This document shows positions 29,057 to 62,497 of a DNA stretch of 64,000 bases, piece by piece. The translations under genes were made by a program, and so were the position numbers. Numbering within the stretch: position 1 is the first letter of the stretch; every line of letters begins with the position of its first letter. Source of the DNA: a virus; IMG/VR virus record IMGVR_UViG_3300026532_000001, one strand, 5' to 3'. The notes below the pieces were generated by a model that worked only from the letters and a program-made list of their open reading frames with translations, did no database searches and was not told where the DNA came from.

Positions 29057-29115
29057 AGTATTCGACTAATCATCGTTAGTGCTAATTGAACCAAAGTTCA
29101 AAGCAGGAGAAGAAT

Positions 29116-30099
29116 ATGAGCACGGAAGTTACAAGCATCGTTGAGAGTACACAGCTTGATTTATGGATAATGGGATGGTTGCACGAAAAGGGGACGATAT
29201 CTGGTAGTAAAAAGACATTAAAGGCATATAGGGATACAATTGATAGATTTCGTCTTATGCTAAAACAGGCAAATCTAGACCTTGATAGTATCTCTAGTGA
29301 TGAATATGGGTCTGGTATCACTATGAGGCAAGCTCTAAGGTTAAAGGCTCAAGAGTTCTCTACCTACTCAGAAAGAGGCATACAAGTAAAGCCTGCAACA
29401 GTGGAACAAAGACTTGCGGTTATCAGTAGCTTCTATGAGTATGCTATCAGACAAGAATATCTCTTGATCAATCCGATTAAGATGATAGAACGTCCAAAGG
29501 TGCAAGACTATCAAACATCTCGAGCACTCACGCAGGAGCAAACTATGCAGGGCCTGGAAAGCATTGATCGAGAGACACCTAGAGGTAAGCGTGACTATGC
29601 TATGATTTGTGTCCTTCTCTCTACCGGCCGCCGCGTCTCTGAAGTCGCAAACCTTGAGAGAAAGGATCTGCGTATTGACTCAAGAGGCAATATCACTGTT
29701 ACCTTTCTCTGCAAAGGGAATAAGATACTCACAGATGACCTACCAGAAGACACCTCTAAAGCTGTTCTTGAGTGGCTTCAAGCATACTATGAAGCCGATG
29801 TAAACAAGATCGATCCTCATGCAGCCCTCTGGATTAATCTTTCTCCCAGGAAGCATGGAAGCAAGCTTGATATGCGTAGCTTCTCCAATGTGTGTGAGAA
29901 ATACTTCGGAACTGGCAAAGTTCATGCTATGCGCCATACATGGACTGTCAACATGCTCAAGGAAGGCGCAAATCTACAGCTCATCAGGCAGAAGCTTGGG
30001 CATAGCTCACTAGAAACTACTGGCATCTATGCCGCTTCATTGGAGCAAAACGAAAACCCGTTCGCTGAGAGGATAGCGAAAAGAGCAGGAATTAAGTAG
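29116..30099 (+). CDS. tyrosine recombinase / phage integrase (XerC/D-like)
   Basis: RVSEVANL (Arg), HAMRHTWTVNML (HxxR), and LGHSSLETTGIYA (catalytic Tyr). AGGAGA SD lies before ATG 29116. Confidence 0.9.
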   Translation: MSTEVTSIVESTQLDLWIMGWLHEKGTISGSKKTLKAYRDTIDRFRLMLKQANLDLDSISSDEYGSGITMRQALRLKAQEFSTYSERGIQVKPATVEQRLAVISSFYEYAIRQEYLLINPIKMIERPKVQDYQTSRALTQEQTMQGLESIDRETPRGKRDYAMICVLLSTGRRVSEVANLERKDLRIDSRGNITVTFLCKGNKILTDDLPEDTSKAVLEWLQAYYEADVNKIDPHAALWINLSPRKHGSKLDMRSFSNVCEKYFGTGKVHAMRHTWTVNMLKEGANLQLIRQKLGHSSLETTGIYAASLEQNENPFAERIAKRAGIK

Positions 30100-31609: not shown

Positions 31610-32107
31610 ATGTCAAGAGTTTGTACGATTTGTTCGCACGAAAAACGAGCTGAAATTGAAGCGGCAATCGTCACAGGGGGATCATATCGTCACATAGCGT
31701 CACAATTCGGGGTAGGGTACAAGTCGGTAGAAAGACATGCTACTGAGCATATCCAATCATCAGTCAAGCAGTCTCAAGAGGCAAAAGAAGAGGCTAGAGG
31801 TCTAGACGTTGTAAAACAGCTCAAGGATATAAACACAGTAACACTTGCTATCCTGCAAAAAGCAAAGGATACAAAGGATAAAGAGTGGTTAGCACTTCAA
31901 GCTATCGATAGAGTATGTAAGCAATTAGAGCTACAAGCCAAGCTGTTAAGCAATATAGATGATAATAAAGACGAGACGATTAACCCAAGCTTAATGCCGT
32001 ATGTAACAGAAGAAGAGATGACAACCATTAAGAATGTTGTAGAACGAGCGAAAGAACGAAAAGCGAAAGCAGAAGAGAACATTATACCGATGAGGAAACA
32101 CGCGTGA
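31610..32107 (+). CDS. terminase small subunit (putative)
   Basis: Lies immediately upstream of and overlapping TerL. N-terminal CTICSH plus HTH-like SYRHIASQFGVGYKSVERH. Confidence 0.55.
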   Translation: MSRVCTICSHEKRAEIEAAIVTGGSYRHIASQFGVGYKSVERHATEHIQSSVKQSQEAKEEARGLDVVKQLKDINTVTLAILQKAKDTKDKEWLALQAIDRVCKQLELQAKLLSNIDDNKDETINPSLMPYVTEEEMTTIKNVVERAKERKAKAEENIIPMRKHA

Positions 32108-33621
32108 TTATCACAGAGTCCCTTTTGACTATGATGGAAGCTGAAGAGGCCAGGCGCAACTTCACACTCTTTGTGAAGCATGCCTGGCATGAGCTAGAGC
32201 CAGACACGCCACTGCTGTGGAACTGGCATCTCGACGCGCTCTGCATTCATCTCCAGGCACTCTACACCCGCGAAATCACCCGTCTCCTGATCGGTATAGG
32301 CCCGGGCCACGCAAAATCCACCATTGTCTCTGTGATGTTCCCGGTCTGGTGTTGGGTAAATGATCCCTATTCTCGCTGGCTCTGTGCCTCGCATAGCCTC
32401 GATCTGGCTATTCGTGATAATCGCTATCGTCGTCGGTTGATCGAGTCTGAATGGTTTCAAGAGCGTTACGGGCATCTGTTTAAGTTCGCGCATGATCAGA
32501 GATTGAAGTCCTACTATGAGAACGATAAAAAAGGGTATCATATGGCTTTAGCGGTCCGTGGATCTGGAACTGGAAAAAGAGCATCGCATTTATTGATAGA
32601 TGACGCGCATAATGCGATGGAAGGGGAAGCCGATCAAAAAGCGGTGATAGAGTGGTTTGGCAAGACTTGGATTAGTCGCCTCAATGATCAGCAGCATGGG
32701 CCTATGGTCGTCGTCGGTCAGCGGTTGCGTGCAACTGATTTAATTGGACATCTGCTTGAATTAGGTGGCTGGGAACATCTTTGCCTGCCAGAGGAGTTTG
32801 AACCTGATCGACGGAGTGTGACCAAGATTGGATGGCAAGATCCTCGCACACAAGAGGGAGAATTGCTCTGGCCAGAGAAGTTTTCCAGGGAAGTCCTTGA
32901 TAGTCTGAAGAAATCGATGGGAAGCCTGGATTATGCTGCACAGTTTCAGCAGCGTCCGGTACCTGCTGGCGGCGGACAATTCAAAAAGCAATGGTTCCGG
33001 TACTTTACTGCCGAAAATGACTATTACCAGCTAGAAACCGATGCTGGCTTCAAGCGGTTCCTCACAAAAGATTGCTGGCTGTTCATGACTCTCGATCTGG
33101 CTATCTCGACCAAGCAAACCGCGGATTATACCGTGATGTGCACCTGGGCTGTGACTCCTGATCGTGACTTGCTCCTCATAGGCCGACTTCGTGACCGCCT
33201 GGACAACCCTGCTCAGCAGCAGCAGACATCAGTGCTCTACCAACGATATCGCCCCAGCTTCATAAAAATTGAAAGCGTGGCCTATCAGCTTGCTCTTGTG
33301 CAACAACTTCGTAGACAAGGCTTGCCAGTCAAGGAATACAAGCCAGTCAAGGACAAGGTGGCTCGCGCGACAACGGCTGCTGTCTACTACGAGTCAAGCA
33401 AGGTGTTTCATCCCAAACAGGCATCATGGCTCCATGAGTGGGAAGATGAGCTTCTGTTATTCCCTCTGGGTGCTCATGATGACCAGGTAGATAATGCATC
33501 AATGGCTTGTGAAGAGCTGGGCATGCCTCGCAGTGTAGGTGGTATGGTCGTCGACAAACCAACTGAAGAAGAGAAAGAGCGACAGCAGTATGAAGAGGAG
33601 GATGAATTAGCATGGCGATGA
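32104..33621 (+). CDS. terminase large subunit
   Basis: ATPase motifs GIGPGHAKST and HLLIDDAHN. C-terminal nuclease motifs include LDLAIS...ADYTV and GAHDDQVDNASMA. Confidence 0.9.
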   Translation: MIITESLLTMMEAEEARRNFTLFVKHAWHELEPDTPLLWNWHLDALCIHLQALYTREITRLLIGIGPGHAKSTIVSVMFPVWCWVNDPYSRWLCASHSLDLAIRDNRYRRRLIESEWFQERYGHLFKFAHDQRLKSYYENDKKGYHMALAVRGSGTGKRASHLLIDDAHNAMEGEADQKAVIEWFGKTWISRLNDQQHGPMVVVGQRLRATDLIGHLLELGGWEHLCLPEEFEPDRRSVTKIGWQDPRTQEGELLWPEKFSREVLDSLKKSMGSLDYAAQFQQRPVPAGGGQFKKQWFRYFTAENDYYQLETDAGFKRFLTKDCWLFMTLDLAISTKQTADYTVMCTWAVTPDRDLLLIGRLRDRLDNPAQQQQTSVLYQRYRPSFIKIESVAYQLALVQQLRRQGLPVKEYKPVKDKVARATTAAVYYESSKVFHPKQASWLHEWEDELLLFPLGAHDDQVDNASMACEELGMPRSVGGMVVDKPTEEEKERQQYEEEDELAWR

Positions 33622-33909: not shown

Positions 33910-35424
33910 ATGGCGATAAACTTTCCAAACTGGATACGCACAAAGAAGCGGCGTTCCCGTGTAATAGAACGTCCATTCCAAGCGCCTACCTACCCCGCAG
34001 ACTCGCATACCTCAGAGATGTTCGAACGCAACGTGGGCATCATCAATCTGGAAGCCGCAACGAAGCGCAGTGCGAAAGTTCCACAGCCCAGGGGACCCAA
34101 GAACCTCTCCATGGCATGGGATGACACCTCGTTAGGACTGGGTAGTGTTCAGACGCGGGAGGGCTTCCTGGATGACAGGCAGAAGAAGGATACGTACTAT
34201 CAGGTGTACTGCGGGAACCAGTGGGTTTCAGGCTGTGTAGATACCACCGCAGAACGCATGATCTCCGGTGGGTGGGAGACTGTCGAGATTGAGCAAGGGA
34301 AAGGCAATGCTGCCAATGAAGCGAAAGTAAAAGCGTTATTTGACTTTGAAGATGTAGAAGAAGATTTCTTGCAGTTTTTTAACTCAATTGCAACTGATTT
34401 ACTTATTTTTGGTGAAGCCTTCTGCGAAATGGTCTACGGGCCTGATGGTCTTGTGAGAAACTTATATACTATTGACTCTATCACGATGAATACGCAATTT
34501 GACATGCATGGAGTGATCACAGGGTATACCCAACGCTTGGAGAAGAGTACCGATGTTGTGGATTTTGAACCTCGCGAGATTATCCGCTGGTGGCTACCAG
34601 ACCCACGTGCGAAGAAAAAAGCGCTATCCCCTATCGAGAAGCTCAAGGACCCGGTATTCCTGGATCGATCTATGGTTACCTGGGGTGAGAAGTTCTTTAG
34701 GCAAGGTGGCAAGCCGTCCTATTGGGTCGAGATGGGGCCTGACTCCAATGAAGACGATGCCGAACGATACCGTAAGTGGTACTCTGAAAACTATACTGGC
34801 ATACAGAACGCGCATATACCGCCTATCATGTATGGAGGTGGCAAGATCCATGAGTTTGGTACGGGCTCTATTGAGATAGATTTCGATAAGAGTCAGGACA
34901 AGCAGCGGGATAGGGCGCTGGTCGTCTATGGGGTGCCACCTGCTATGCTCGGTATTATTGAAAGCGGCAATATAGGCGGTGGTACGGGTGAGAGTCAGAA
35001 CAAGTCATTTATCTATAATAAAGTCTTCCCATTAGAAAACAAGATACTTGAAAAGCTAAATTATAGAGCAGTCAAAACGGGACTGAATGTAGAAGACTGG
35101 CGGGTCCAAACGCGTCACGCAGATTACCGACAGGATGTAGATATCGCTACTATTGAGGATAAATCAATCAGAAATGGTACTCTCACTATCAACGAAGCTA
35201 GACAAGAACGCGGACGTACCGATGTCCCGGGCGGCGACACACCTATTCTCATCTCTGCTACCACTATCACACCCGTATCTCATTTGGAGAGTCTAGAGCA
35301 AGAACAACAGCAGCAATCCGCTCAGGACGACCAGAATAATCCCGATGATCAACAAGGTGACCAATCGCCACAGAACAACCAACAGCCTCCTCATAAGGAT
35401 AAACAAGAGGAGGCTGAGCAGTGA
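33910..35424 (+). CDS. portal protein
   Basis: 504 aa, follows TerL, with an acidic/Q-rich C-terminus. Confidence 0.8.
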   Translation: MAINFPNWIRTKKRRSRVIERPFQAPTYPADSHTSEMFERNVGIINLEAATKRSAKVPQPRGPKNLSMAWDDTSLGLGSVQTREGFLDDRQKKDTYYQVYCGNQWVSGCVDTTAERMISGGWETVEIEQGKGNAANEAKVKALFDFEDVEEDFLQFFNSIATDLLIFGEAFCEMVYGPDGLVRNLYTIDSITMNTQFDMHGVITGYTQRLEKSTDVVDFEPREIIRWWLPDPRAKKKALSPIEKLKDPVFLDRSMVTWGEKFFRQGGKPSYWVEMGPDSNEDDAERYRKWYSENYTGIQNAHIPPIMYGGGKIHEFGTGSIEIDFDKSQDKQRDRALVVYGVPPAMLGIIESGNIGGGTGESQNKSFIYNKVFPLENKILEKLNYRAVKTGLNVEDWRVQTRHADYRQDVDIATIEDKSIRNGTLTINEARQERGRTDVPGGDTPILISATTITPVSHLESLEQEQQQQSAQDDQNNPDDQQGDQSPQNNQQPPHKDKQEEAEQ

Positions 35425-35426
35425 TT

Positions 35427-36419
35427 TTAGAGCAGGCGTCCTCCCTCGGGCCATTCCCAGGGGAATTTATTCCCTTTGCTGAGGTTGCAAGTAGGGCAAG
35501 TCAATACCAAGTAGTCAATACTGTTAGCAGGAATATCGCTGCCAGTAACTCTGCTGAGTGGAAAGGTGTGTTCGATGTGGTAGATATACTTGCCCCTAGT
35601 CTTCTGGAATTTAGCATGTCCACAAGCAGCATAATAGCATCTGCCTTTCTGCCGCTTCAGTTGCTCTTGGATTTGAGCACTGGTATGTTTGCCTTCGATG
35701 CCCTTTTTTCTTGCTCTGTAGGCATGGCCTATTGTTTGATACATTACCTTGTTCTGCTGGTAATGTCTCTTATGGCGATCCTTAGTGTATTCTTTGTGTG
35801 CTTGATAGTATCGTTTGCTTCGTTTAGAAACGTGGTCTTTGTTAATCTCATTGTACTCCTTACAGTACTCTTTGTGCTCTTCTTTATGTGTATCGTTCCA
35901 GATTTTTTGACGTGCAAGGCGCTTGCCTCTGATTGTGGGTCGCATGCTATACTCTTTGCCTCTTTTGCTCTTGCATCCCTTGCATTGATAGTCAAACCTT
36001 ATTTCTTGCGCTGCACTACGATGAAAAAACTCTTCAGTCAATGGGTAGATGCTCTTGCATGTAGGACATCGCCTGTGCCCTTCAGGGACATCTGTGGTTT
36101 TAGGAGGTCTGGCAAGGCACTTCTTGCAATAAGGGTACAATCCGTCACTCCTCCCTTTGGCTCTAGAGAAGAAATCTACAGTAGCAGGCTTGATTTCTTT
36201 ACATTTGCTGCATCGCTTATGACCTTCTGGTATAGCAATGTGGGGCTTTTCCTTATTTTCTTTGTTGGATATCATTACACAGCTTTTGCACTGAGTATTG
36301 AGCCCATCTTTTTGGCGTTTATGGGAGAAAAAATGTTCTTTGGTAGCAGGAAAGAATTGGTTACATTTCCTGCATTGCTTGAGGGGAACATTGACGTTCT
36401 GGGGTACAATATCACTCAT
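35427..36419 (-). CDS. free-standing HNH homing endonuclease with four tandem Zn-ribbon modules
   Basis: Repeats of the form KxCxKCxxxxPxxxxxFxxxxxxxDGLxxxCKxC. HNH core YHIEHTFPLSR...CPTCNLSKGNK. Own promoter. Antisense to the late operon. Confidence 0.85.
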   Translation of the reverse strand: MSDIVPQNVNVPLKQCRKCNQFFPATKEHFFSHKRQKDGLNTQCKSCVMISNKENKEKPHIAIPEGHKRCSKCKEIKPATVDFFSRAKGRSDGLYPYCKKCLARPPKTTDVPEGHRRCPTCKSIYPLTEEFFHRSAAQEIRFDYQCKGCKSKRGKEYSMRPTIRGKRLARQKIWNDTHKEEHKEYCKEYNEINKDHVSKRSKRYYQAHKEYTKDRHKRHYQQNKVMYQTIGHAYRARKKGIEGKHTSAQIQEQLKRQKGRCYYAACGHAKFQKTRGKYIYHIEHTFPLSRVTGSDIPANSIDYLVLTCPTCNLSKGNKFPWEWPEGGRLL

Positions 36420-36499
36420 GGAAAGGCTAACTCCTTTTCATCACGCCTCCAGATGTTGACTGCATCGTGGGGGCAAAAACATGTTCAATTTATGAGATT

Positions 36500-36508
36500 A
36501 TTATACCA
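36500..36508 (-). promoter_or_regulatory. extended -10 TGGTATAAT for HNH 35427..36419
   Basis: Minus strand TGGTATAAT. Followed by a 5'-UTR hairpin (36445-36474) and GGCGTGATGA (36438-36447). Confidence 0.55.
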
Positions 36509-36532
36509 TAAATTGGCTTGGAGGGCTAGCCT

Positions 36533-36727
36533 GTGAATAATCCTAACGAGCATCAGAAAGTACGTTGCAGGAACAACCATACTATCCTGCATTATGATGC
36601 ACAAGGGTTGCATCTCCGTTGTAGGCATTGTAAGACAATCGAGATAAAACCCTGGGCAGAAGTATTGCAGATGTACACATCCATTGCATCTTCACCAGAA
36701 TTTGATGCTCGTATCTTGCATTCCTAA
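36533..36727 (+). CDS. small zinc-ribbon protein (Com-like layout)
   Basis: VRCRNNH...LRCRHCK. The GTG start overlaps the stop of the + strand bridging ORF. Confidence 0.4.
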   Translation: MNNPNEHQKVRCRNNHTILHYDAQGLHLRCRHCKTIEIKPWAEVLQMYTSIASSPEFDARILHS

Positions 36728-36829: not shown

Positions 36830-37429
36830 ATGAGTATCAGTATACCATCTTCAAAAATATGCATCCATTGCCACCAAGAAAAGTCCCCCGATGATTTCTA
36901 CTATCCCTACAAAAATGTCTGCAAGCAATGTAATCTGGCCTATCAAAAAAGAGAGAGGCAAAGAATAAAGCTTCAGCAGCAGTCATTTCCACCTCCTGAT
37001 GTTAATCAGACAAAACAGTGCAGAGCATGCAAAGAGATCAAAAATGTTGAGGCCTTTAAAAAGGATAAAGGGACGCGTGGGGGGTACATATCTCTTTGTA
37101 AGGCGTGTCATGTTAAGGAAGAGTATAAGAGGTCAACGACGAACCCCAATAGAACGCCCTCACGTCGATGGAAAAAGATAAATTTTACATACAAGGAGTA
37201 CTGCCGAATGCTAGAAGAGCAAGGCGGTGTGTGTGCTATCTGTAAACAGTCGGAAACTATTGTCAATCGTGCTCATAATACGCCTCTTCAGCTTGCAGTT
37301 GATCACAATCACGATACCGGACAGGTTCGCTCATTACTTTGCAGTGCCTGTAATTTAGCTGTAGAGAGAGTAGAAAGAGATATAGAGTATCATAAAAGCT
37401 TGCTTGCATACCTGGAACTTCACTCATGA
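36830..37429 (+). CDS. Zn-ribbon / endonuclease VII-family homing endonuclease
   Basis: Two Zn-ribbon modules like the HNH paralogs. The C-terminus QGGVCAICKQ...LAVDHNHDTGQVRSLLCSACNLAVE is EndoVII type. Confidence 0.8.
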   Translation: MSISIPSSKICIHCHQEKSPDDFYYPYKNVCKQCNLAYQKRERQRIKLQQQSFPPPDVNQTKQCRACKEIKNVEAFKKDKGTRGGYISLCKACHVKEEYKRSTTNPNRTPSRRWKKINFTYKEYCRMLEEQGGVCAICKQSETIVNRAHNTPLQLAVDHNHDTGQVRSLLCSACNLAVERVERDIEYHKSLLAYLELHS

Positions 37430-38981: not shown

Positions 38982-40418
38982 ATGCCCGCTAGTCTAAGAG
39001 AGATAAGAGAGAGCTTTTCGCTTTCTTCAACAGGTGGCTCCCTCAATCTTATCCTGAAACAAATCGACAGCACGCTCACTGAGTTGCAACGCAAGTGGGG
39101 ACCGCTAGGCAGAGCTATCCCGCGTCAGACGTGGGAGACTGACATCTTTTACTTCAACACAAGGTCAGCACTTCCCCAGCCACAGCACTCGCTAGAAGCA
39201 CCTCCGAACTCCGGAGTGGGCTCGGTAGCAGCAAGCAACTCGACCTACAAGCAGGGACAATTTCCAATCAAGCATACCGAGTCCATTGGCGACTTGTCCA
39301 AATTCATGGTACAGGTCGCACGTGCCAACGGGAACCTGTTCGACCTGGAGCTTGGGGCTCATGCCAAAGCGATGACGTGGCTGGAGGAAACCACGCACAT
39401 ATATGGCTCAGCTCAGGCCACACTCAATACGAAGCGCCCTCAGTGGGATGGGATCGATATGATGGTTGCCAATGCCAATAAGATCGACGCCGGGACTCAA
39501 CTTCTCGCATTTCAGATGATGGACAACGCCATTGACGCCGTTCGCGGTCGATATGCTCAAGAGCTTGGCATGGACTACTTCTGGATGATGTCCCCAAAGA
39601 TGCAATCTTACATCAACGGGTTGCACGTCCAGAACGCGCGTTACAATCAAGTGATGAAGCGCATGTTCTTGCGTGATGACTATGGTGATCCGAGTGCACC
39701 TGTAGCAGATAATGCTATAGATGCAGGCGTTGAGGTTGAGTCGTATCGCAATATCCCCATCATCATTTCAAGTTTCATGGGCAATCAGGGCACCATGGGA
39801 ACCATTAGCACAACTGGCAATACAGGGACTGGCTCCTCACTTGCTACCAGTCCTTACTACTACCGGGTGGAAGCGGTTACACGATATGGCTTGATGGCGG
39901 CCTCTGCTGAAGCTTCCCAAACGCCAGGAAGCGGGAATAACATTGTCTTGAGTTGGACAACACCAGCTCCAACGGACGCCGACGGCAATGTGATCGACAT
40001 CCTTGGCTACCGCATATTCCGCAGTACGGTAAGTGGCGCAGAGAGCCTGTATGCGCTGGTCGCAGCCTATGACATCAATGACGCTGCGGTAACCTCCTTC
40101 ACTGATACCGGGCTCATCCAAAACCCAGCAGTCACCAGTACGCTCTATTGGGCTACCGTTGCCTCCTCTGGTGCCAATGCCATTTCTGATGGCGTGACCT
40201 TCCCTCGTGTCCAGACTGGCACCCAGGTCACTGAGGATATCTACCTCATCCCACGTGATCCGGACATTCTCGTTTGCCCAGAAGTCAACCCGATTCAGAC
40301 CGAGCTTCTCGCTGTCATCAATGCCAGATCGCGTCAATTTGCCTTGAATGCTGATAAGACGCTGGCGCTACGAGCACCTGCGTTTGCTGCAAAAATTGGA
40401 AGAGTGAGGGCCGCATAA
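38982..40418 (+). CDS. major capsid protein with an inserted FN3/Ig-like domain
   Basis: Position after protease-scaffold and size (478 aa). The insertion YYYRVEAVTRYG...LSWTTPAPTDADGN...GYRIFRS spans nt 39855-40075. Confidence 0.7.
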   Translation: MPASLREIRESFSLSSTGGSLNLILKQIDSTLTELQRKWGPLGRAIPRQTWETDIFYFNTRSALPQPQHSLEAPPNSGVGSVAASNSTYKQGQFPIKHTESIGDLSKFMVQVARANGNLFDLELGAHAKAMTWLEETTHIYGSAQATLNTKRPQWDGIDMMVANANKIDAGTQLLAFQMMDNAIDAVRGRYAQELGMDYFWMMSPKMQSYINGLHVQNARYNQVMKRMFLRDDYGDPSAPVADNAIDAGVEVESYRNIPIIISSFMGNQGTMGTISTTGNTGTGSSLATSPYYYRVEAVTRYGLMAASAEASQTPGSGNNIVLSWTTPAPTDADGNVIDILGYRIFRSTVSGAESLYALVAAYDINDAAVTSFTDTGLIQNPAVTSTLYWATVASSGANAISDGVTFPRVQTGTQVTEDIYLIPRDPDILVCPEVNPIQTELLAVINARSRQFALNADKTLALRAPAFAAKIGRVRAA

Positions 40419-40690: not shown

Positions 40691-41263
40691 ATGCCAGTAC
40701 AACAGCTTGATACCAATTATCGAACCATAGGCGGGCCAACTGATGGACAAAAAGCAACGTATTCTGTCGCAAAGGTTGGGCTGGTGCCTGCAAACAGTGC
40801 AACCGATATCTTCACAATCACAGCAGGCGGGCTACTTGTCAGAGTTACCCGTATCGAGATCGTAGGCACGAGCACGGCTGCTACTGCTGCTGCTCTTGAT
40901 GTACTATTGCTCAAGAGGAGTACTGCAAATACAGGAGGTACCTCAAAAGGTAGTCCCACATCTGTAGCCCATGACAGCCAGAATGCACCTCCCAGTGCTA
41001 CGGTACTCGCCTACACTGCTAATCCATCGGCCTTGGGAACACTTGTTGGCACTGCCATTCGTAACCAGAAGCTCATGCTGGCGCTTGCCACCTACACTGC
41101 TACGGATTTCCCGCCAATGGATCGGGTGAACTGGGAATTTGGCAACCGACCAGCACAGGCGCTTGTCCTGCGACCTGGAGAGGTCCTTGCAATCAACTTG
41201 AATGGCGTCACACCTACGGCAACCGCGTCCCTGAATGTTGCAGCGGAATTTTCCGAGGAGTAA
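40691..41263 (+). CDS. hypothetical beta-rich structural protein
   Basis: 190 aa with T/A/S/G-rich composition, located in the head module. Confidence 0.45.
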   Translation: MPVQQLDTNYRTIGGPTDGQKATYSVAKVGLVPANSATDIFTITAGGLLVRVTRIEIVGTSTAATAAALDVLLLKRSTANTGGTSKGSPTSVAHDSQNAPPSATVLAYTANPSALGTLVGTAIRNQKLMLALATYTATDFPPMDRVNWEFGNRPAQALVLRPGEVLAINLNGVTPTATASLNVAAEFSEE

Positions 41264-41357
41264 AGTAGAAGAAGCGTGAGAGGAAGTATAAGAAAGGAGG
41301 TGTGCTACGCCATACAGATTATCAATTGCATGCTGGCATAACTTGCTGTCTTTTAGG

Positions 41358-42554
41358 TTAGAGGAGACGTCCACCTTCTGGAAATTCCCAAGGGCACTTG
41401 TTTCCTTTGCTTTGATTGCAGTGAGGGCAAGTGAGAACAAGGTGAGAAATCTCATTACGAGGTTGAAGGTCTGTTCGTGTGATAGGGATGGTATGGTCAA
41501 CGTGATAAACGTATTTCCCTTTGATCCTCTTGATCTTGGATCTGCAATAGTAGCAATAGTAACGTTGCCTCTTCAACTGCTCTCGAATCTGTGCAGGGGT
41601 ATGAGAGCCTGGAATGTTTTTAATACGAGCCCGACGATTGCGCGTGTAAATCCTAAGGTACTCTATGTACCATTCTTTGTGTGCTTGTCTATACTCCTTG
41701 CTATATTGCAGGCGCTTACCCTTATTGGCTGCATAATACATCTTTTGACGTTTGAGTATATCTTCCTTATGCAAGGCATAATGCTGTCGTTTCTTCTCTA
41801 TGATCCATTCTCTGTTTTTATGCCAGTACTGTCTATCTCTTTGGGCTATACGTTCTCTCAGCAAGGGACGCCGCTCTCTTCGTCTTTGGTTTACTGCTTC
41901 TCTGTTTTGTTGCAAGTATTGTCTCTTTTCGTTTTGAGTACAAGCTTTGCATCGAGAGTACAATCCATCTTTAGAAGTTTTGCGTGCTCCAAAGTATTCA
42001 CTAGTAGATGGCTTAATTTCTCGGCAACTCGAGCAGCGTTTTTGTCCTTCTGGAAGTTTCTCTATGGGCTTTCTTTTGAGCCTTCTCCTGTTACGGGTAT
42101 ATTCGTTTGCGCATTTTTTGCATCGAGACATAACTCCGTAAGCATACTCCTTGGCAGGATAAAAGAACTCGGTGGTTGCTGGAAGAATTTCTTGGCATTT
42201 AGAACACTGTCTATGTCCTTCAGGGATAGGATTAGGATTGGGCTGTTTCTTGCTTTCGCTATAAGCTCTACAGCAGATTTTGCACCAGGAATGCAGTCCA
42301 CTTTTTTCCGTTCTACATGCATGAAAGTGTTGCATAGTGGCTGGTTTAACCTCTGTGCAATTTGGACAACGTTTGTATCCATCGGGCACAACAGGAGTTT
42401 TCCTTGGTTGAGGTTTCTTCCGCGCTTTGCAACATTTCTTGCAAAGCGTCCTGAGGTGATCTTGTTTGCTCCTATCGGATTGAAAGTACTCAAGGGTGGC
42501 AGGATATTCTTGTTTGCACCCGTTGCAGCGTTTCTGTGGTATAGTATCACTCAT
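41358..42554 (-). CDS. free-standing HNH homing endonuclease with five or six tandem Zn-ribbon modules
   Basis: Same repeat architecture as 35427..36419. HNH core YHVDHTIPITR...CPHCNQSKGNK. Confidence 0.85.
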   Translation of the reverse strand: MSDTIPQKRCNGCKQEYPATLEYFQSDRSKQDHLRTLCKKCCKARKKPQPRKTPVVPDGYKRCPNCTEVKPATMQHFHACRTEKSGLHSWCKICCRAYSESKKQPNPNPIPEGHRQCSKCQEILPATTEFFYPAKEYAYGVMSRCKKCANEYTRNRRRLKRKPIEKLPEGQKRCSSCREIKPSTSEYFGARKTSKDGLYSRCKACTQNEKRQYLQQNREAVNQRRRERRPLLRERIAQRDRQYWHKNREWIIEKKRQHYALHKEDILKRQKMYYAANKGKRLQYSKEYRQAHKEWYIEYLRIYTRNRRARIKNIPGSHTPAQIREQLKRQRYYCYYCRSKIKRIKGKYVYHVDHTIPITRTDLQPRNEISHLVLTCPHCNQSKGNKCPWEFPEGGRLL

Positions 42555-42636
42555 GGTACGTCTCCTTTAAGTTGCGTATCATCACGCCAGCGGTTGTTAG
42601 AGCAACGCGCTGGCAAACCCATATTTAGATGGGTTA

Positions 42637-42645
42637 ATTATACCA
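42637..42645 (-). promoter_or_regulatory. extended -10 TGGTATAAT for HNH 41358..42554
   Basis: Followed by a 5'-UTR hairpin (42586-42614) and GGCGTGATGA (42579-42588). Confidence 0.55.
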
Positions 42646-42703
42646 CAAAGCCGCCTCCAATGCCAGTTTACAGGGAGGAGGTGGTACTATCCCTCGCTTC
42701 TAC

Positions 42704-43609
42704 ATGACCCCCCAAGAAATTCAGGATACCCCACTCGGGCAAGGGTTGAGTGCTTCCATTTCTGCCTTACCAACAGGGCAAATAGATCGAATGCTAGCGA
42801 AAGCCTCAGCACGCTGTGACTCTGAGTGTAGACGCCGCTTGCAGGCCCCGGGCTCTACTACACTCTCACAGAACGCTAGTCCAGGGGCTACACAGCTCTC
42901 GCTTGCCTCTACAGTCACCTTGGATGAGCTTGACGAACAGGCTGTACAGATCGGTAGCGGATCGACACAGGAGACGATCCTAGTCAAGTCTGGAGGTGTG
43001 AATGTCACGAATTGGGCATCTCCCTACCCAGGCACAATCAATCTTGCAAGTGCTACACAGTTCTCTCACAGCTCAGGAGATCCTGTAGTCTTTCTCTACA
43101 AAGAGACAACAGAGGCCGGTGGCGCGTCTAGCTCAGACCCATATGCAGAGGCAGCCCTTACACAAGAGGCTCAAATTGCAGCGTCTCACATGCCATCCTT
43201 GCATAGTGGCCTGACACGTGTAGTTTTCTTGCGCAATTATCCCATTATCACTATATTAGCTATAGAACATGCATTTTCATTTACAACGCAATTTAATACA
43301 GTTGATGTAACTGCACAAATACCTGTACCTACAGAAGGATGGTACCGTTTCAGCCCCGGGAGCATGATATTGCGTGAAGGGATTATGCGCACAACGTACA
43401 CGGGAGGTTTCCAGAATATACCAGATGACATAAAGGAGGCTACAAGCAAATTCTTTGCAGTGGCTATGAGGCAGATGATTAACCCATATGGAACGATTGA
43501 ACTGCATTTGGGTAAGCGTAAGCAGAAGTGGGCAGCAAGAGGTGGAGAGAAAGATCCTCTGGTAGAAGAAGCATGCCGTATTTTGAAGAAGTATAAGAGG
43601 ACGGTATAG
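42704..43609 (+). CDS. head-tail adaptor/connector (gp6-like, extended)
   Basis: C-terminal NYPIITILAIEH...TTYTGGFQNIPDDIKEATSKFFAVAMRQ resembles head-tail connector family endings. Confidence 0.5.
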   Translation: MTPQEIQDTPLGQGLSASISALPTGQIDRMLAKASARCDSECRRRLQAPGSTTLSQNASPGATQLSLASTVTLDELDEQAVQIGSGSTQETILVKSGGVNVTNWASPYPGTINLASATQFSHSSGDPVVFLYKETTEAGGASSSDPYAEAALTQEAQIAASHMPSLHSGLTRVVFLRNYPIITILAIEHAFSFTTQFNTVDVTAQIPVPTEGWYRFSPGSMILREGIMRTTYTGGFQNIPDDIKEATSKFFAVAMRQMINPYGTIELHLGKRKQKWAARGGEKDPLVEEACRILKKYKRTV

Positions 43610-46232: not shown

Positions 46233-46489
46233 AGTACTTCAAGATGAGTCTTAGCGATTCAGGTAAAGCGCAAAGCGAGGTATGGCGTCGTCAAGCCTTG
46301 GTCGGTCTCAAGGCATCAAGCTTTCATACCAGTGGAAGCCTAGAGGTCTCTACCTGGACTGCAGATGTAGTTGGTGAGGCAATCTTTCGCCAAGTGCTCG
46401 TAGATATGCAAATTCAGCATGAGGAAGGTAACGAACAGCAGATTTTTACTTTCCTGGATAAACACTTTTCGTTAGATGAAAGGAAGTAA
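46229..46489 (+). CDS. hypothetical tail-module protein
   Basis: 86 aa; ATGA overlap. Confidence 0.4.
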   Translation: MKYFKMSLSDSGKAQSEVWRRQALVGLKASSFHTSGSLEVSTWTADVVGEAIFRQVLVDMQIQHEEGNEQQIFTFLDKHFSLDERK

Positions 46490-46491
46490 AC

Positions 46492-46986
46492 TTGCCTTCT
46501 GGCCCTAATACACCAGCAATCTTGCAACAAATTAAGACCATGGCGCAAGGTGTCCAGGTTGGATCCTCCAACTTCTTCCAGTCTGCGAACTGCAAAGTGG
46601 GGCGCTTCAAGGATATTCGGGACAATCTGCCAGCATTCGAAGTCGTCCTGGGTCCTAAGGATGAGACCAAGCGGCAAACCAGCGGGGGCGCTCCTGTCGT
46701 AGGGGGAAGGATCGATGACTCGCAAGACTACACCTTTGAGGTCACGTTGGCATATTCGGATGCGGACTCTGAAATAGTGGAAAGCACAACCTTGCCAGGC
46801 ATCAGAGACGCACTCACACAGATGTTCCACGCCTCTGCAAATCTTGGCATGCCTGGGCAAGTACAGAGTAGCCAGCTCACCGGAATTGGTGAGTATTTGT
46901 ATCTCATGAGAAGCGGTGAGATCTACCGCATGTATCGCAATGTGTTGCGTGTGCAATATCAATATAACGTTTTGATGGTTCCATAG
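46492..46986 (+). CDS. tail completion/terminator-like protein (putative)
   Basis: 164 aa, TTG start, positioned before the tube gene. Confidence 0.4.
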   Translation: MPSGPNTPAILQQIKTMAQGVQVGSSNFFQSANCKVGRFKDIRDNLPAFEVVLGPKDETKRQTSGGAPVVGGRIDDSQDYTFEVTLAYSDADSEIVESTTLPGIRDALTQMFHASANLGMPGQVQSSQLTGIGEYLYLMRSGEIYRMYRNVLRVQYQYNVLMVP

Positions 46987-46996
46987 GAGAAAATGT

Positions 46997-47179
46997 ATGG
47001 AGACAAAGATAGCAGATGCCGATGGCAAGGTGGATCAAAACGGACATGAGGCGACGTATCCACCGGGTACAAAAGTCTTCTTTGAAGCGGGTGCCTACGC
47101 AGGCCACGTCTCGCCAGAAGTCCCAGAAGAAGAGAAACCAGCTAAGATACAAAAGAAGCAAATAGAGTCGAAAGAATGA
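46997..47179 (+). CDS. hypothetical small protein
   Basis: 60-aa ORF. Confidence 0.35.
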   Translation: METKIADADGKVDQNGHEATYPPGTKVFFEAGAYAGHVSPEVPEEEKPAKIQKKQIESKE

Positions 47180-49391: not shown

Positions 49392-49573
49392 TACCTGAGA
49401 TCAAGGATGCAACCATGTGGAACATTTACGGAAGTAAGAGCGACTACATGAGAGCACCTAGATTAGAAGCACATAGGCAGTGGATACGCTACCAAGCTGA
49501 ACAACAGTATGAGCAAGAGAAGCAGAAGCAGATAGAGCAGCAGCAAAGAGAGGAGATAAATCGTGGCCGATGA
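48954..49573 (+). CDS. tail assembly chaperone GT-like product via -1 frameshift, join(48954..49349,49349..49573)
   Basis: The -1 frame is open from the slippery site to TGA 49571-49573, overlapping the tape-measure GTG 49563. Confidence 0.65.
49343..49349 (+). promoter_or_regulatory. -1 programmed ribosomal frameshift slippery heptamer T TTT TTA
   Basis: The zero-frame codons gaT TTT TTA fit X XXY YYZ. The site lies 40 nt before the 0-frame stop. Confidence 0.7.
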
Positions 49574-52500
49574 TCTCTACTTGCGTATTGCTCTAGAGGC
49601 GCGTGACCTCGCTTCAAATATCGTCAAGAATGTTGGCAAATCTCTTGCCGATCTGAGTGGATCGGGAGCTCTTGCAGGCTCAGGACTTCTCCTTGCAGCA
49701 GGAGGAGCGGCACTTGTAGCGGGTGCTATTGCCTCAACTATCAAACCAGCAGCGGATTTTCAATCTCAGTTGACCAGCTTGGTTACGGGCGCGGGTGAAC
49801 TTCCCCGAAATCTCAAGATGGTAGGGGCTGGTATTCAAGATATCGCTGTCGAGACGGGTACTGCAACCAAAGACCTGACCTCAGCTATGTTCATGATCAA
49901 TTCGAGCGGCAAAATAGGCGCGGATGGCTTGCTGGTACTGCGAGCAGCGGCACAGGGGGCCAAGACTGACAATGCCGACTTAACCACGGTCACCAAAGCC
50001 TTAACCACCATCATGACGGACTATCATCTTCCAGCTTCACAAGCAGCTGCTGCAACTAATGAGCTGATAGCAGCGGCTAAAGCAGGAAAGATGCATATGC
50101 AGGATCTTGCAGGTTCAATGGGTATGGTTCTGCCAATTGCTCATAGCGCTCATGTCTCTTTTGCCGATGTTGGTGGCGCACTTGCCATGATGACCAATGC
50201 AGGCATGACGGCCCAGCGCGCTTCTCAAAATCTGGCATTTGCTCTTCGTGCTCTTGAAGCCCCCTCTGGCATCGCACAGAGCTCTATGACGGATATCGGG
50301 CTAAAAGCTCAGGACCTCAAAGATACACTTTCCACAAAAGGTCTGCCTGCCGCTCTCCAACTTATTGAGGATCATATTGGCTCAAAGTTCCCAGCAGGAA
50401 GCATAGAAGCGACGACAGCACTCAAGAACATCATGGGAGGTGCAGCAGGTTTAAATGTCGCCTTACAGATTGGCGGCGAGAATATGGACGCTTATAGGAA
50501 GAATGTATCATCCATCACAGCAGCACTCAAAGCAGGTGGAACCTCGGTTGAGGGTTGGGATCTTGTTCAGCAGAACCTGAATACAAGAATGCAGCAAGCG
50601 CAAGAGGTAGTAGAAGTACTCAGGATCAAGATCGGGACTGCTCTTCTGCCGATGGTGACCGCAATTGCAGGGGCTATTATTCCCGTGATTACTGGTTTCT
50701 CCAACTTTATTAGCTGGTTGGATAAAGCAAATATGCTCGTCCCTATCCTCAGCGGCGTGCTAGCTGGCTGTGCAGCTCTCATCCTGGCAGTGGTAATTCC
50801 TGCGTTGGTGAGCCTGGCTGTAGCTGTCATAGGCGCTACATTGCCTTTCTATCTGGTAGCAGCGGCTATAGCAGCAGTTGTTGCAGCTTTCATCTACTTC
50901 TATAACAATTCCAAGCCATTTAAGGTATTCGTTGATAATTCAATTGTGTCTGTTAAATCATTTGCTGCAACGCTTGTGAATGATCTGAAGCCTGCGATGA
51001 AAACTGCTGAAAATGCCTTCCATAGTCTCCAGAATGAAGCACAGCTCGCTATGTTCTCTATCGTTGATGTGGTACAGCAGAGTACATCAAAAGCAAAAGT
51101 TAGCGCACTCAGCAATACTATAGAGCAGAAGCAGAAACTGATTGCATCCTATGAAGAGCAAAGAGCACATATTCAAAGTGAGATGATCTATTTCCATGAT
51201 GCTGTGCATATCAATACTCTTAAGGCAAAGCTCACAGCTATCAAAAATGCTCAAGATCAGGCACAGGGCGTTGTTACGGCTGCTGCATGGCAGAGAATAA
51301 GCATTGAAGATGAGATGAAACGGCTTGACCCTGCCGTGAGGATGCACACACTCCAGATGAAGGATGTCAGTATTAGCCATTCCCTTGCTCAAGCTGAAGG
51401 CACTGTGAAAAACATTGCAAAGCAGCGAGCAGGCATCATAAACGAGATGCATCACGCTCATACTGAAGGTGCTATGGAAGCATTGCAACTAAAGCTCAAG
51501 TCGATTGATCATGCACAGAAACAAGCCGATGGTGTTGTTGCTGCTATCACAAGGCAGAAGAATGGCGTAGAGCAACTTATACAGCAACAAGGCTCTATTC
51601 TCATAAATGAGGCTATTATCAACGGCGCTATTGCGATGTGGCAAAACCTGCAAACTGGCACTATTTCAGCAGTTCGCGGCATAATGCCGGTGCTTCTCTG
51701 GCTATGGTCTGGTATGCAGATGCTTGGCTCCTTCATCGCCACACAATTCAAGCCCGTTTGGGATGAGCTTGTCCATGTCTGGCAAACACAGATCGTTCCT
51801 GCCTTTTCGGGTCTTGCTCCAGTAGTTGAACCACTCAAAATGCTGCTTGGGGCACTGGCAATGGTTGTGGGGGTTGTTCTTGTTATCGCGTTGGGCGTGC
51901 TAGTCGGGGCTATCACGGGCGTTGCTAAAGGACTGGCCGGTCTCCTTATTGGAGTTGCACAAGTTGTGGGTGGCGTTATTCAGATATTTGGCGGGTTGGT
52001 TCAGTTTTTCTCTGGTATTGTGGCTTTTGTCGTTGATCTGGTAACAGGACAGTGGGGAAAGCTCATTCCTGATTTGCTTGTTATTTGGTATGGTATAGAG
52101 AATACTGTTGCTGGGCTGGTAAATGTTGTGACAGGACTGTTCTGGGCACTTGTCTGGGGAGTATGGGGACTTGTTTCCGGTTTTGTCATGGGCATTATCG
52201 GCTTTTTCATACATCTCTACAACGCGCTTGTGGGACATTCCATCATACCGGATCTTGTAAACGGTGCAATTGCCTTGTTCATGCAGCTCAATATCCGAGC
52301 TGTTCAACTAGTAATGCAGCTAGTAATGGGTGTCATTGGCTGGTTTGCTCAACTCCCGGGGCGTGCCGTTAGCTTCCTCTGGTCCTTGCCTGGAATGATC
52401 CAAAGTGTTTGGAATACTGTCATCGCAGATGCAACAAATGCAGGAGCAAATATTGTCAATGGAATAGCGAATGGGATTAGAGGTGCAATAGGAGCTGTAG

Positions 52501-52916
52501 GAGGTGCTATTAGTGATGTCGGCAGTTTCATTTCCTCTCATCTGCCGCATTCTCCAGCCAAACTCGGACCTTTGCGAGATCTTGAGCTGCAAGGATCGAT
52601 GATACCTAAGCAGATCTCAGAAGGTATTAAGGCAGGCAAACCAGTCCTGGACGCAACAATTAACTCTGAAATGCTCCATTCCTTCCGCTCACCCGGGCTC
52701 AATACCAGCATGGCAAGCTCATTTGTCGATAAAAGTCCATCCACCAGCAGCAGCTCGGTCGTGGTGAACAACAACACCATCAACGTTACCGTCAATGCTC
52801 CAGGTCGATCTCGCAATGAGGCGCAAGACATTGCAGACAAGGTAAAAGACGAACTAACAAAAGAACTGAATAGAAGTGGTGTTCTGGTATCGTGGGCGTC
52901 AGGAGGTAGAACTTGA
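49563..52916 (+). CDS. tail tape measure protein
   Basis: 1117 aa with a TP901-type core (ETGTATKDLTSAMFMINSSG) and long helical and hydrophobic segments. Confidence 0.9.
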   Translation: MADDLYLRIALEARDLASNIVKNVGKSLADLSGSGALAGSGLLLAAGGAALVAGAIASTIKPAADFQSQLTSLVTGAGELPRNLKMVGAGIQDIAVETGTATKDLTSAMFMINSSGKIGADGLLVLRAAAQGAKTDNADLTTVTKALTTIMTDYHLPASQAAAATNELIAAAKAGKMHMQDLAGSMGMVLPIAHSAHVSFADVGGALAMMTNAGMTAQRASQNLAFALRALEAPSGIAQSSMTDIGLKAQDLKDTLSTKGLPAALQLIEDHIGSKFPAGSIEATTALKNIMGGAAGLNVALQIGGENMDAYRKNVSSITAALKAGGTSVEGWDLVQQNLNTRMQQAQEVVEVLRIKIGTALLPMVTAIAGAIIPVITGFSNFISWLDKANMLVPILSGVLAGCAALILAVVIPALVSLAVAVIGATLPFYLVAAAIAAVVAAFIYFYNNSKPFKVFVDNSIVSVKSFAATLVNDLKPAMKTAENAFHSLQNEAQLAMFSIVDVVQQSTSKAKVSALSNTIEQKQKLIASYEEQRAHIQSEMIYFHDAVHINTLKAKLTAIKNAQDQAQGVVTAAAWQRISIEDEMKRLDPAVRMHTLQMKDVSISHSLAQAEGTVKNIAKQRAGIINEMHHAHTEGAMEALQLKLKSIDHAQKQADGVVAAITRQKNGVEQLIQQQGSILINEAIINGAIAMWQNLQTGTISAVRGIMPVLLWLWSGMQMLGSFIATQFKPVWDELVHVWQTQIVPAFSGLAPVVEPLKMLLGALAMVVGVVLVIALGVLVGAITGVAKGLAGLLIGVAQVVGGVIQIFGGLVQFFSGIVAFVVDLVTGQWGKLIPDLLVIWYGIENTVAGLVNVVTGLFWALVWGVWGLVSGFVMGIIGFFIHLYNALVGHSIIPDLVNGAIALFMQLNIRAVQLVMQLVMGVIGWFAQLPGRAVSFLWSLPGMIQSVWNTVIADATNAGANIVNGIANGIRGAIGAVGGAISDVGSFISSHLPHSPAKLGPLRDLELQGSMIPKQISEGIKAGKPVLDATINSEMLHSFRSPGLNTSMASSFVDKSPSTSSSSVVVNNNTINVTVNAPGRSRNEAQDIADKVKDELTKELNRSGVLVSWASGGRT

Positions 52917-55614: not shown

Positions 55615-55713
55615 GAAGCAAAAGGTGGCATTATATTGTCAAGTCAACTAAAAGTAAAAAATATAGCTCAAACATTTTATTTGTTTGAGCTATCACATAG
55701 GGAAATTGAGAGA

Positions 55714-56670
55714 TTAGACACCTCTACGTTGACGAGCTGTCATTTCAGAGGGCAGCTTCTTGCCCTTTCTCCTATTACAGACATGGTGAGTTGCTGCAAG
55801 GTTCTCCTCGCTATGAGGTCCTCCGCGAACAATGGGGATCACGTGGTCAAAATCAATCTTATGATGAGGGAGAATAGGCTTTTCGCAGATATAGCAAATG
55901 CCGTTACTCTTTGCAAGAACGCTTCTGTAATTTACTTTGCCAGTAGTGACTCTCTTCTTGAATGCATATCTCCTTCTGCTATATTCTATTACTTTCAAAG
56001 AGTTTTCTTTTCTCCAATTCTTTGTGTACTCAGACATCAACAGCGGATTCTCTGCTTTCCACCTTTCGTTGAGAGCGCGATGCGCATCCTTGTTATTCCT
56101 GTACCATCTCTTCCCTGTTTCAAGTCTACGTTGCCTGTTAGCAGGAATTGCATAAGAATCACGGTTATGCGTTTGTGTGCACTCTTTGCACCAGATATTA
56201 TAACCAGATTTATTGCGATTGTCCTTGGTAAATTCGCTAAATGGCTTCTCAGCCCGACATTGGGAACAAACCTTCCCACCATTCAATGCTGCAGGCAAAG
56301 GCTGTATTTTCCTTCCCTCCCTATCAGCACGGACCTGTCCTGCCTCGCTAATACATGTTTTGCAATGAGACGTATACCCACCTGTGTCTTTACGCTTGTG
56401 GAATTCCGTGATCGGTTGCTCTATAAGGCATCTGGAACAAACCTTCCCACCAGCCACAGCTTTAGGTTTGTTTCTAACAGGCACATAGTGTTCTTGGTGA
56501 TACTCTTTACTATTTGCCCGAATGCAGTCTTTGCAGCGAGCCGAGCATCCATGCTTACCACGGATATCCGCATAGAAGTCTTCAAGGGGCTTTTCTATCT
56601 GGCATTGCTTACAAACCTTGCCAGTAACAAAAAGAGGGAGTTGTTGAGCAGTATGATATGCTTCATTCAT
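55714..56670 (-). CDS. free-standing HNH homing endonuclease with tandem Zn-ribbon modules
   Basis: GKVCxxCxxEKPxxxF repeats. HNH core IDFDHVIPIVRGGPHSEENLAATHHVCNRRKGKK. Confidence 0.85.
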   Translation of the reverse strand: MNEAYHTAQQLPLFVTGKVCKQCQIEKPLEDFYADIRGKHGCSARCKDCIRANSKEYHQEHYVPVRNKPKAVAGGKVCSRCLIEQPITEFHKRKDTGGYTSHCKTCISEAGQVRADREGRKIQPLPAALNGGKVCSQCRAEKPFSEFTKDNRNKSGYNIWCKECTQTHNRDSYAIPANRQRRLETGKRWYRNNKDAHRALNERWKAENPLLMSEYTKNWRKENSLKVIEYSRRRYAFKKRVTTGKVNYRSVLAKSNGICYICEKPILPHHKIDFDHVIPIVRGGPHSEENLAATHHVCNRRKGKKLPSEMTARQRRGV

Positions 56671-56754
56671 GACGAAAAATCTCCAATCAGATTTAGTAGT
56701 CTAGGGCCTAGAGCGTGCTACCAACATGTTCTAGGGCCATTTTGTTGTGCCTCC

Positions 56755-56763
56755 ATTATACCT
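56755..56763 (-). promoter_or_regulatory. -10 element AGGTATAAT for HNH 55714..56670
   Basis: Minus strand GAGGTATAAT. Followed by a 5'-UTR hairpin ggccctaga...tctaggccc. Confidence 0.45.
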
Positions 56764-56798
56764 CATCAATCCCCATTTGTCTATCAAGGAGGTGCTTT

Positions 56799-62218: not shown

Positions 62219-62497
62219 CTATTTTGCATTTCTCTTTGCCTTTCTCTTTTTGCTATCGATATATTGGACAATAGCATGACTCATCACGAGGTCTGCAACT
62301 CTCATATAATCGGACTCTTGGACTTCACTCCCAAGTGGGACAATGGTCTGCGAAGCAGCTTGTTTGAACTCTTCCCAAAGTTGTTCTGGAAGACCGATAG
62401 AGAACCATTTGAAGCCGGCCTTGACAGGAACCTCTATCGTTTCAGGTTTGCGAGGGCGGCCAGCTCCAGTCCGAGCACCCCCGCGATTGCTACTCAC
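62219..62497 (-). CDS. hypothetical DNA-binding-like protein (start uncertain)
   Basis: GTG 62497 overlaps the upstream TAG. Basic N-terminus GAGRPRKPETIEVPVK. Confidence 0.35.
   Translation of the reverse strand: MSSNRGGARTGAGRPRKPETIEVPVKAGFKWFSIGLPEQLWEEFKQAASQTIVPLGSEVQESDYMRVADLVMSHAIVQYIDSKKRKAKRNAK

Follow-up and report, generated by a model that had tools for sequence, protein, structure and literature searches.

How can an endonuclease gene that points backwards persist inside a rightward phage operon? The 64,000 nucleotide sequence analysed here (IMG/VR record IMGVR_UViG_3300026532_000001; hereafter the window, meaning the whole of this stretch) is a tailed-phage genome in which the plus strand holds almost all of the genes from approximately 11.7 to 62 kb. 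At 41358..42554, a gene for an HNH endonuclease lies on the minus strand, between two plus-strand genes, and the strand opposite it carries a frame that is free of stop codons over its entire length. A preliminary description, made from the letters of the sequence, had reported this sense frame, its termination at an ATGA shared with the next structural gene, and a second instance of the same pattern, which was held to argue against chance. The question is what keeps the frame open. We consider it likely that the locus is a free-standing, antisense HNH homing-endonuclease cassette that keeps a stop-free sense frame as a relay for ribosomes across the insertion.

The HNH gene and the frame opposite it

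The minus-strand open reading frame (ORF) 41358..42554 is a real HNH gene. It starts with ATG and encodes 398 aa, with the HNH domain at the C-terminal end (PF01844, residues 334-386, 29.2 bits with a cut-off of 21.4; PF13395, 23.0 bits with a cut-off of 22) and four CxxC...CxxC repeats in the N-terminal part. Its 89 homologues are 24-58% identical to it. HNH homologues include one labelled as coming from a Ktedonobacteraceae metagenome-assembled genome (MAG) and two labelled as Patescibacteria MAG, and these are probably mis-binned phage contigs.

In the plus-strand frame that is codon-aligned with the HNH gene, any TTA, CTA or TCA codon of the gene is read as a stop, and these three are here called forbidden codons. 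The gene contains 21 Leu and 20 Ser codons, and not one is TTA, CTA or TCA, where 7-8 would be expected. The aligned frame, here called the bridging frame, is open across the whole gene and both flanks, from 41292 to 42707 (41292..42707, +; 471 codons from stop to stop), and the remaining two plus-strand frames contain 24 and 22 stops across the gene. The 50 codons outside the HNH gene (42555-42704) are likewise stop-free, with a probability of approximately 0.07 for an off-frame run of that length. The frame ends at a TGA (42705-42707) that overlaps the ATG at 42704 of the ORF 42704..43609, forming ATGA (42704-42707). Thus, the antisense gene, the codon-aligned sense frame and the ATGA overlap are all present as first described. 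The sense ORF listed there, from TTG 41343 to TGA 42707 (41343..42707, +; 454 codons), is present as well, but the frame is open already from 41292 and the TTG start is doubtful, as no Shine-Dalgarno (SD) sequence precedes it. Fusion of the bridging ORF in frame with either neighbour was considered and rejected, as the flanking genes use different frames.

To estimate how often such a frame would arise by chance, the 36 plus-strand genes of the window phage (13,113 codons) were used as the reference for codon usage. In these genes, TTA and CTA make up 21.6% of Leu codons and TCA makes up 20% of Ser codons, and none of the 36 lacks forbidden codons (0/36). The probability of zero forbidden codons is 7e-5 for the HNH gene 41358..42554, and the product of the probabilities for the three HNH genes of this kind in the window (35427..36419, 41358..42554 and 55714..56670) is approximately 4e-11. 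Together, the three would be expected to contain 21.4 forbidden codons and have 0. There is no depletion of other A-ending codons (286 observed, 245 expected), and the non-aligned plus-strand frames across the three genes contain 14-24 stops. In ordinary plus-strand genes of the window phage and its relatives, antisense open runs reach at most approximately 240-276 codons and never cover a whole gene. The other minus-strand genes in the window (Bro-N at 9724..10461, 10845..11489 and 62490..62984) have 3-12 stops in every plus-strand frame. We conclude that the avoidance of stops is real and codon-specific, and is not due to chance.

The first of the two sibling cassettes has a bridging ORF at 35421..36536 (+) over the HNH gene 35427..36419 (-). 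This ORF starts in a GTGA overlap with the portal stop codon, behind the SD GAGGAGG-N6, and ends in a GTGA overlap with a 64 aa ORF at 36533..36727. The bridging ORF of the third cassette, 55636..56808 (+) over the HNH gene 55714..56670 (-), starts with a TTG 21 nt past the stop of the upstream gene, preceded by AAAGGTGG, and the same site is also occupied by a cassette in the relative L023. When the three bridging ORFs are counted, the largest gap without translation on the plus strand between 31.5 and 62 kb is 306 nt. Without them, the same region has untranslated gaps of 1108, 1440 and 1500 nt.

The surroundings of the sibling cassettes provided some further observations. The 64 aa ORF 36533..36727 (+) has a zinc-ribbon-like Cys/His pattern and no family match. 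A 306 nt gap without a clear gene comes after the 3' end of the third cassette. The 3' ends of the third cassette (56780-56810) and of the cassette in L007 (9495-9521) have AGGAGGTGCTTT(T/A)TG.CC.CTAA in common despite their different sites. The L007 copy comprises the SD and initial codons of the host gene, and the third window cassette may have brought flanking donor sequence along. A minus-strand ORF at 46414..47028 (204 aa) was considered as a fourth cassette and rejected, as it is the shadow of a real gene at 46492..46986 (+), which has an SD and a TTG start and whose homologue in L007 lies downstream of the cassette. ORF 46414..47028 shows that codon-aligned antisense ORFs of approximately 200 codons can arise by chance.

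Dependence of the open frame on orientation

A first set of HNH homologues with genomic context was assembled from viral contigs and the protein database. Nine of its 12 antisense-embedded copies, namely the three in the window and six further homologues, have zero forbidden codons (3.5-7.9 expected in each), the exceptions being L016, L038 and L040, whereas zero was found in none of the 21 sense-oriented or strand-switch copies, each of which has 2-20 (Fisher p = 6e-6). A scan of metagenomes returned 80 loci, which were reduced to 66 non-redundant ones. Where the HNH gene is flanked on both sides by opposite-strand genes (23 loci), 16 copies have zero forbidden codons and 19 have an open sense frame of any kind. 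Where it is followed by a gene on the same strand (25 loci), no copy has either. For the codon-aligned frame alone, the difference between 16/23 and 0/25 has a Fisher p of 1e-7, and the 20 loci of the metagenome set with zero forbidden codons would have been expected to contain 105. The repetition that had been taken to argue against chance thus extends from the three cassettes in the window to six further homologues and to the metagenomes (19/23 against 0/25).

The register of the open frame is not fixed. Among the 19 open antisense metagenome copies, 16 are codon-aligned and three (L113, L086 and L096) are open in another register. In L113, L086, L096 and L120, the codon-aligned sense frame has 6-11 stops and the offset-2 sense frame has 0, and the bridging end takes the form TAG-GAGG-N6-8-start. 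An offset-2 open frame is the harder way to keep a bridging ORF, as it constrains codon pairs. We conclude that the open sense frame depends on the orientation of the cassette, and not on its register.

The ends of the bridging ORFs follow a pattern. Reading of the junction sequences by eye placed the bridging stop between -10 and +21 nt from an SD-preceded next start at approximately 22 of 27 open loci. The 3' junction takes the forms ATGA, GTGA, TTGA, TAATG or TAG-GAGG-N9-ATG. At the 5' end, the usual arrangement is an SD and ATG a few nt past the upstream stop, or an ATGA or GTGA overlap with that stop, and the bridging start often directly adjoins the HNH stop codon, read as its complement (ATG TTA, ATG TCA or ATG CTA). 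In L007, for example, a 40%-identical HNH gene lies antisense at a different site, and its 330-codon bridging ORF overlaps the upstream stop at its start (ATGA) and terminates 7 nt past the SD-ATG of the next gene. The bridging ORFs therefore have the architecture of coupled cistrons.

The HNH proteins compared are 35-50% identical, and the homologues are saturated at synonymous sites. Where residues are identical, the codons agree at a frequency of 0.36-0.46, with 0.41 expected for independent draws. A nucleotide comparison of the HNH paralogues, which the preliminary description had suggested, revealed that codon choices differ at conserved Leu and Ser positions, which vary among the permitted codons CTC/CTG/TTG/CTT and AGC/TCT, and that avoidance is kept separately in each copy. 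Open-frame copies are scattered over the deep HNH tree, among sense-oriented ones. As the synonymous sites are saturated and the open copies scattered, openness is kept by ongoing selection, lineage by lineage. A polymorphism test on closely related open-frame cassettes returned no informative pairs, as the redundant loci were identical.

The same is not true of the bridging protein. Its identity between copies is approximately 0.25, compared with approximately 0.23 when the HNH genes are resampled synonymously (mean z 0.94). No homologue was found in 5.8 billion proteins and no Pfam family was matched, and the offset-2 bridging frames encode unrelated sequences. Only the openness of the bridging frame is conserved, not its protein sequence.

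The cassette as an insertion and the proposed role of its bridging frame

Twelve IMG/VR contigs that encode capsid proteins 57-94% identical to that of the window phage were used as relatives. In six of them (L002-L006 and L008; capsid proteins 77-94% identical), the site is empty. The homologues of the upstream flanking gene (40691..41263) adjoin those of the downstream gene there, and the two are approximately 40 nt apart. When aligned, the native junction in L002-L006 reads ...AAGAGGAAGTAC ATG CCT AGA CTn TAT CTn ACT CCT.... The window matches it through GAAGTAT (41283-41289), diverges, and resumes at ATG ACC CCC (42704). The cassette is an insertion, and the alignment indicates that it deleted codons 2-6 of the downstream gene and supplied a new ATG. 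The N-terminus of the protein encoded by 42704..43609 is without residues 2-6 (PRLYL), which are conserved in the relatives. The alignment also indicates that the native SD of the downstream gene, AGAGGAAGT (41279..41287, +), was left 1.4 kb upstream of the ATG. At 42704, no SD is present at a usable spacing, and the nearest candidate, GGGAGGAGGTGG (42673-42684), is separated from the ATG by 19 nt.

The nearest HNH relative (47-49% identity) is in L036, a more distant genome (capsid protein 40% identical), at the upstream edge of the homologous gene. There, the cassette directly precedes an MPRLY start that is intact, and the host codons CCT AGG provide the bridging stop, TAG. Free-standing homing endonucleases are recognised by presence or absence at a defined site among close relatives and by related endonucleases at the same target site in distant genomes. 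Both were found, the latter in L036 and L023. A group I or II intron or an intein was ruled out, as no ribozyme was detected and neither flanking gene is in the same frame as the bridging ORF. No Rfam family reached its gathering score anywhere in the window, and 41100-42900 had no match at E <= 1. No convincing terminal repeats or target-site duplication were found around the cassette.

On its minus strand, the cassette has candidate expression signals of its own. A promoter scan identified a sigma-70-type promoter at 42637..42666 (-), CTGGCA-18 nt-TATAAT with the extended -10 TGGTATAAT, which matches the consensus at 10/12 positions and includes the TG. Most of the cassettes inspected have a -10 of the TGnTATAAT type 80-90 nt 5' of the ATG; W_H3 and L023 have GAGGTATAAT without the TG, and in L035 no -10 was found by pattern. 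The SD of the HNH gene, AAAGGAG (42562..42568, -), is 7 nt before its ATG, and most of the cassettes inspected likewise have an SD. Between the -10 box and the SD, a leader hairpin of the form GCCAGCGCGTTG-loop-CAACCGCTGGC (42586-42614) is followed by GTGATGA (feature 42579..42614, -). RNAalifold, run on five cassettes, predicted 10 pairs, of which eight have compensatory changes. The hairpin is also found at 36420-36515 (-) and in L015, L035 and L036, and is similar in all cassettes inspected. The loops have UGYU...A(A/G)CAC in common and no match in Rfam. The hairpin may regulate the endonuclease. A 13 nt inverted repeat, 92% complementary, joins the last codons of the HNH gene (41358-41370) to its SD region (42558-42570); the repeat may bring the 5' and 3' ends of the HNH mRNA together, or may be a coincidence.

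The relay that we favour would work as follows. The HNH cassette is inserted antisense at the very start of a structural gene, within a rightward late operon, and its minus strand would serve as an expression unit of its own made up of the sigma-70-type promoter, structured leader, SD and HNH gene. Selection on the plus strand would keep one frame stop-free across the cassette, promoter and leader included, so that the insertion would read like an ordinary cistron of the operon, a form that would have evolved repeatedly or persisted. Ribosomes would enter near the stop of the upstream gene, translate approximately 450 codons of irrelevant amino-acid sequence, terminate at the ATGA and be able to re-initiate on the downstream gene 42704..43609. 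The selected property would be the transit of ribosomes itself, which would preserve translational coupling to the next gene, and would probably also avert Rho-type polarity, mRNA decay or pairing with the HNH transcript over a 1.4 kb untranslated stretch. As the downstream gene is without a ribosome-binding site of its own, the ATGA junction probably carries its expression. The two benefits, coupling and protection from polarity and of the mRNA, cannot be told apart by sequence alone.

A possible entry point for ribosomes lies near the start of the bridging frame, where a strong SD-like AAAGGAGGTG (41293-41302) is followed by an in-frame ACG at 41307, 6 nt after the GGAGG (feature 41293..41309, +). 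In L015, the same AAGAAAGGAGGTG precedes an ATG, and the bridging ORFs of L015 and L019 both begin with an SD and ATG. The TTG at 41343 is 1 nt past the stop (TAA, 41339-41341) of a short upstream ORF.

Several points count against a ribosome relay. In this cassette, only the near-cognate ACG 41307 follows the strong SD, with no canonical start at proper spacing; the first canonical start, TTG 41343, has no SD. Translation of 41292..42707 is inferred. The predicted product of 454 aa is hydrophobic (grand average of hydropathy 0.6, with four transmembrane-like segments), a possible cost. Not all antisense copies have an open sense frame: L016, L038 and L040 have none, and among the metagenome antisense-embedded copies 3/23 are without one and a further 1/23 has a single stop. 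The sense RNA over the cassette has no C-rich, G-poor bias of the kind associated with Rho loading.

A role mainly in protecting transcription or the mRNA (against Rho termination, RNase, head-on RNA polymerase collisions or sense-antisense duplexes), with delivery of ribosomes to the next gene secondary, is possible but in our view the less probable account. It would explain why the full 1.1-1.5 kb is open and not only the last codons, and it fits the strong convergent promoter predicted in almost every cassette inspected. At most other loci, a good SD for the downstream gene lies within the last part of the bridging ORF, and that gene would not strictly depend on re-initiation. At the locus studied here, however, the ATG at 42704 has no usable SD and the native SD is stranded, which points to coupling. 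The missing C>G bias counts against protection as it does against the relay, although its absence tells little, and protection overlaps with the relay instead of excluding it.

It is improbable that the bridging ORF encodes a functional protein, such as a membrane protein of the kind found in small phages, and forms a true antisense overlapping gene pair with the HNH gene. The ORF is long, its ribosome-binding and coupling signals are plausible, its products are hydrophobic with 4-6 transmembrane-like segments, and the identity between copies is marginally above the null. However, that identity is almost exactly what the constraint on the HNH protein alone predicts, and the searches of Pfam and of the protein database described above found no relative. 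In addition, the different register in some relatives yields an unrelated protein, and the composition is the mere complement of a Lys/Arg/Glu-rich gene.

We regard it as highly improbable that the frame is a shadow ORF, produced incidentally by composition or codon bias. By construction, codon-aligned antisense frames contain the fewest stops, and ordinary genes of this phage and its relatives have the antisense open runs given above. However, GC content is just 44-47%, forbidden codons account for 20-22% of Leu and Ser in the phage, and the probabilities given above apply, with no avoidance of other A-ending codons. In similar genomes, sense-oriented homologues use 2-20 forbidden codons, openness extends over the non-coding promoter and leader, and in some relatives the open frame is not codon-aligned; the orientation contrast (16/23 versus 0/25) refutes a shadow ORF. 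Avoidance for the sake of the HNH gene itself, as rare-tRNA or regulatory codons like TTA/bldA in Streptomyces, has next to no probability: all three forbidden codons are A-ending Leu or Ser codons and codon-level regulation exists in some bacteria, but the three are in normal use in the flanking phage genes and in HNH homologues with sense orientation, the open non-coding flanks, coupling junctions and offset-2 cases would be left unexplained, and the dependence on orientation contradicts it.

The phage and its place among known elements

The plus-strand genes of the window phage include those for the large terminase (32104..33621), the portal (33910..35424; PF04860), a protease-like protein, the major capsid protein (38982..40418), the tail tape-measure protein (49563..52916) and a lysin. 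An integrase (29086..30099), a C5 methylase and a primase-polymerase/D5 protein are also encoded, and no tRNA genes were found in the window. The structural gene downstream of the cassette (42704..43609, +) had been called a head-tail adaptor; its match is weak (phrog_442 in PHROG, E = 9e-4), and we retain the name as putative. Two sense-oriented endonuclease genes were also seen. One, at 36830..37429 (+), is endonuclease VII/HNH-like (phrog_2633, 1.7e-30), has nine forbidden codons and adjoins the first antisense cassette, so the interval between portal and protease contains two mobile endonucleases. The other, at 21106..22383 (+), encodes an HNH_3+AP2 protein and has seven forbidden codons.

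The large terminase protein (TerL) is 30-37% identical to those of assorted proteobacterial phages. When the nucleotide sequence of the window and its capsid protein were used to query 50,697 phage genomes, no match was returned, and the lineage is unrepresented there. No relatives of the capsid and endolysin proteins were found among 185,579 species genomes. Relatives of the capsid protein were found solely in metagenome-derived contigs (IMG/VR viral contigs), apparently from soil.

The closest parallel to the codon avoidance is in ambigrammatic narnaviruses, in which avoidance of UUA, CUA and UCA leaves a reverse ORF open across the RdRp gene (Retallack et al. 2021, PMC8316113). The narnavirus reverse ORF is not conserved as a protein, and translation or ribosome occupancy itself has been proposed to matter (PMC8316113). 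Here too, a full-length ORF is present on the complementary strand, 0/41 Leu and Ser codons are forbidden ones, and the protein is not conserved. However, narnaviruses are eukaryotic RNA viruses in which the whole segment is an ambigram, whereas here the genome is that of a DNA phage and the ambigram is limited to a mobile cassette and depends on its orientation. In addition, stop/start overlaps wire the ORF into an operon, and some copies are not codon-aligned.

A hidden HNH insertion named 'ShiLan' has been described in actinophage methylase genes (Arsenault et al. 2025, PMC11855218). Like the cassette, it combines an HNH homing endonuclease with a stop-free frame through the element and is neither an intron nor an intein. 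In ShiLan, the HNH gene is on the same strand, out of frame and inside the host gene, and translation of the element adds an in-frame loop to the host protein. Here, in contrast, the HNH gene is on the opposite strand, between genes and with its own predicted promoter, and the open frame forms a cistron of its own, coupled to those on either side.

The free-standing seg and mob endonuclease genes of T4-like phages can persist only if they fit into the transcription and translation of the host (Edgell et al. 2010, PMC2988022). In T4, start/stop overlaps suggest coupling (mobE), and segD is antisense-oriented (PMC2988022). The cassettes resemble seg and mob genes in being intergenic, in their predicted promoters and in their patchy distribution. 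They differ in that the review of seg and mob genes describes no stop-free sense frame over an antisense endonuclease, and in that coupling in T4 serves expression of the endonuclease and not relay to a host gene. The cassettes also resemble group I introns and inteins, as selfish elements that reduce their cost by letting host gene expression pass, but there is no splicing and no in-frame host protein here, and neutrality would come about through translation of the operon.

A search of full-text literature, limited in its coverage and thus no proof of novelty, returned no account of a stop-free sense frame opposite an antisense endonuclease, and an antisense endonuclease cassette with a bridging ORF appears not to have been described before. 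We tend to think that the antisense homing-endonuclease cassettes of these soil phages represent an undescribed 'ambigrammatic' class of mobile element, in which a meaningless ORF, in any register, is kept solely as a carrier of ribosomes. Such a class would be a third route to silencing an insertion, beside introns and inteins, and the first counterpart of the narnavirus ambigram in a DNA genome.

There is a consequence for annotation, as gene callers tend to call the longer, co-oriented bridging ORF as a hypothetical gene and miss the HNH gene, or the reverse, and such loci call for careful annotation. The dozens of independent cassettes, in two registers, are natural replicates in which the role of uninterrupted translation in polarity, coupling and mRNA protection can be studied, and they would offer a tractable bacterial counterpart to the ambigrammatic narnaviruses, which have not been explained. 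If the relay is real, it would explain how endonuclease genes come to lie backwards inside tightly coupled phage structural operons, and a selfish gene would have neutralised its cost to the host operon by translation, with neither RNA nor protein splicing.

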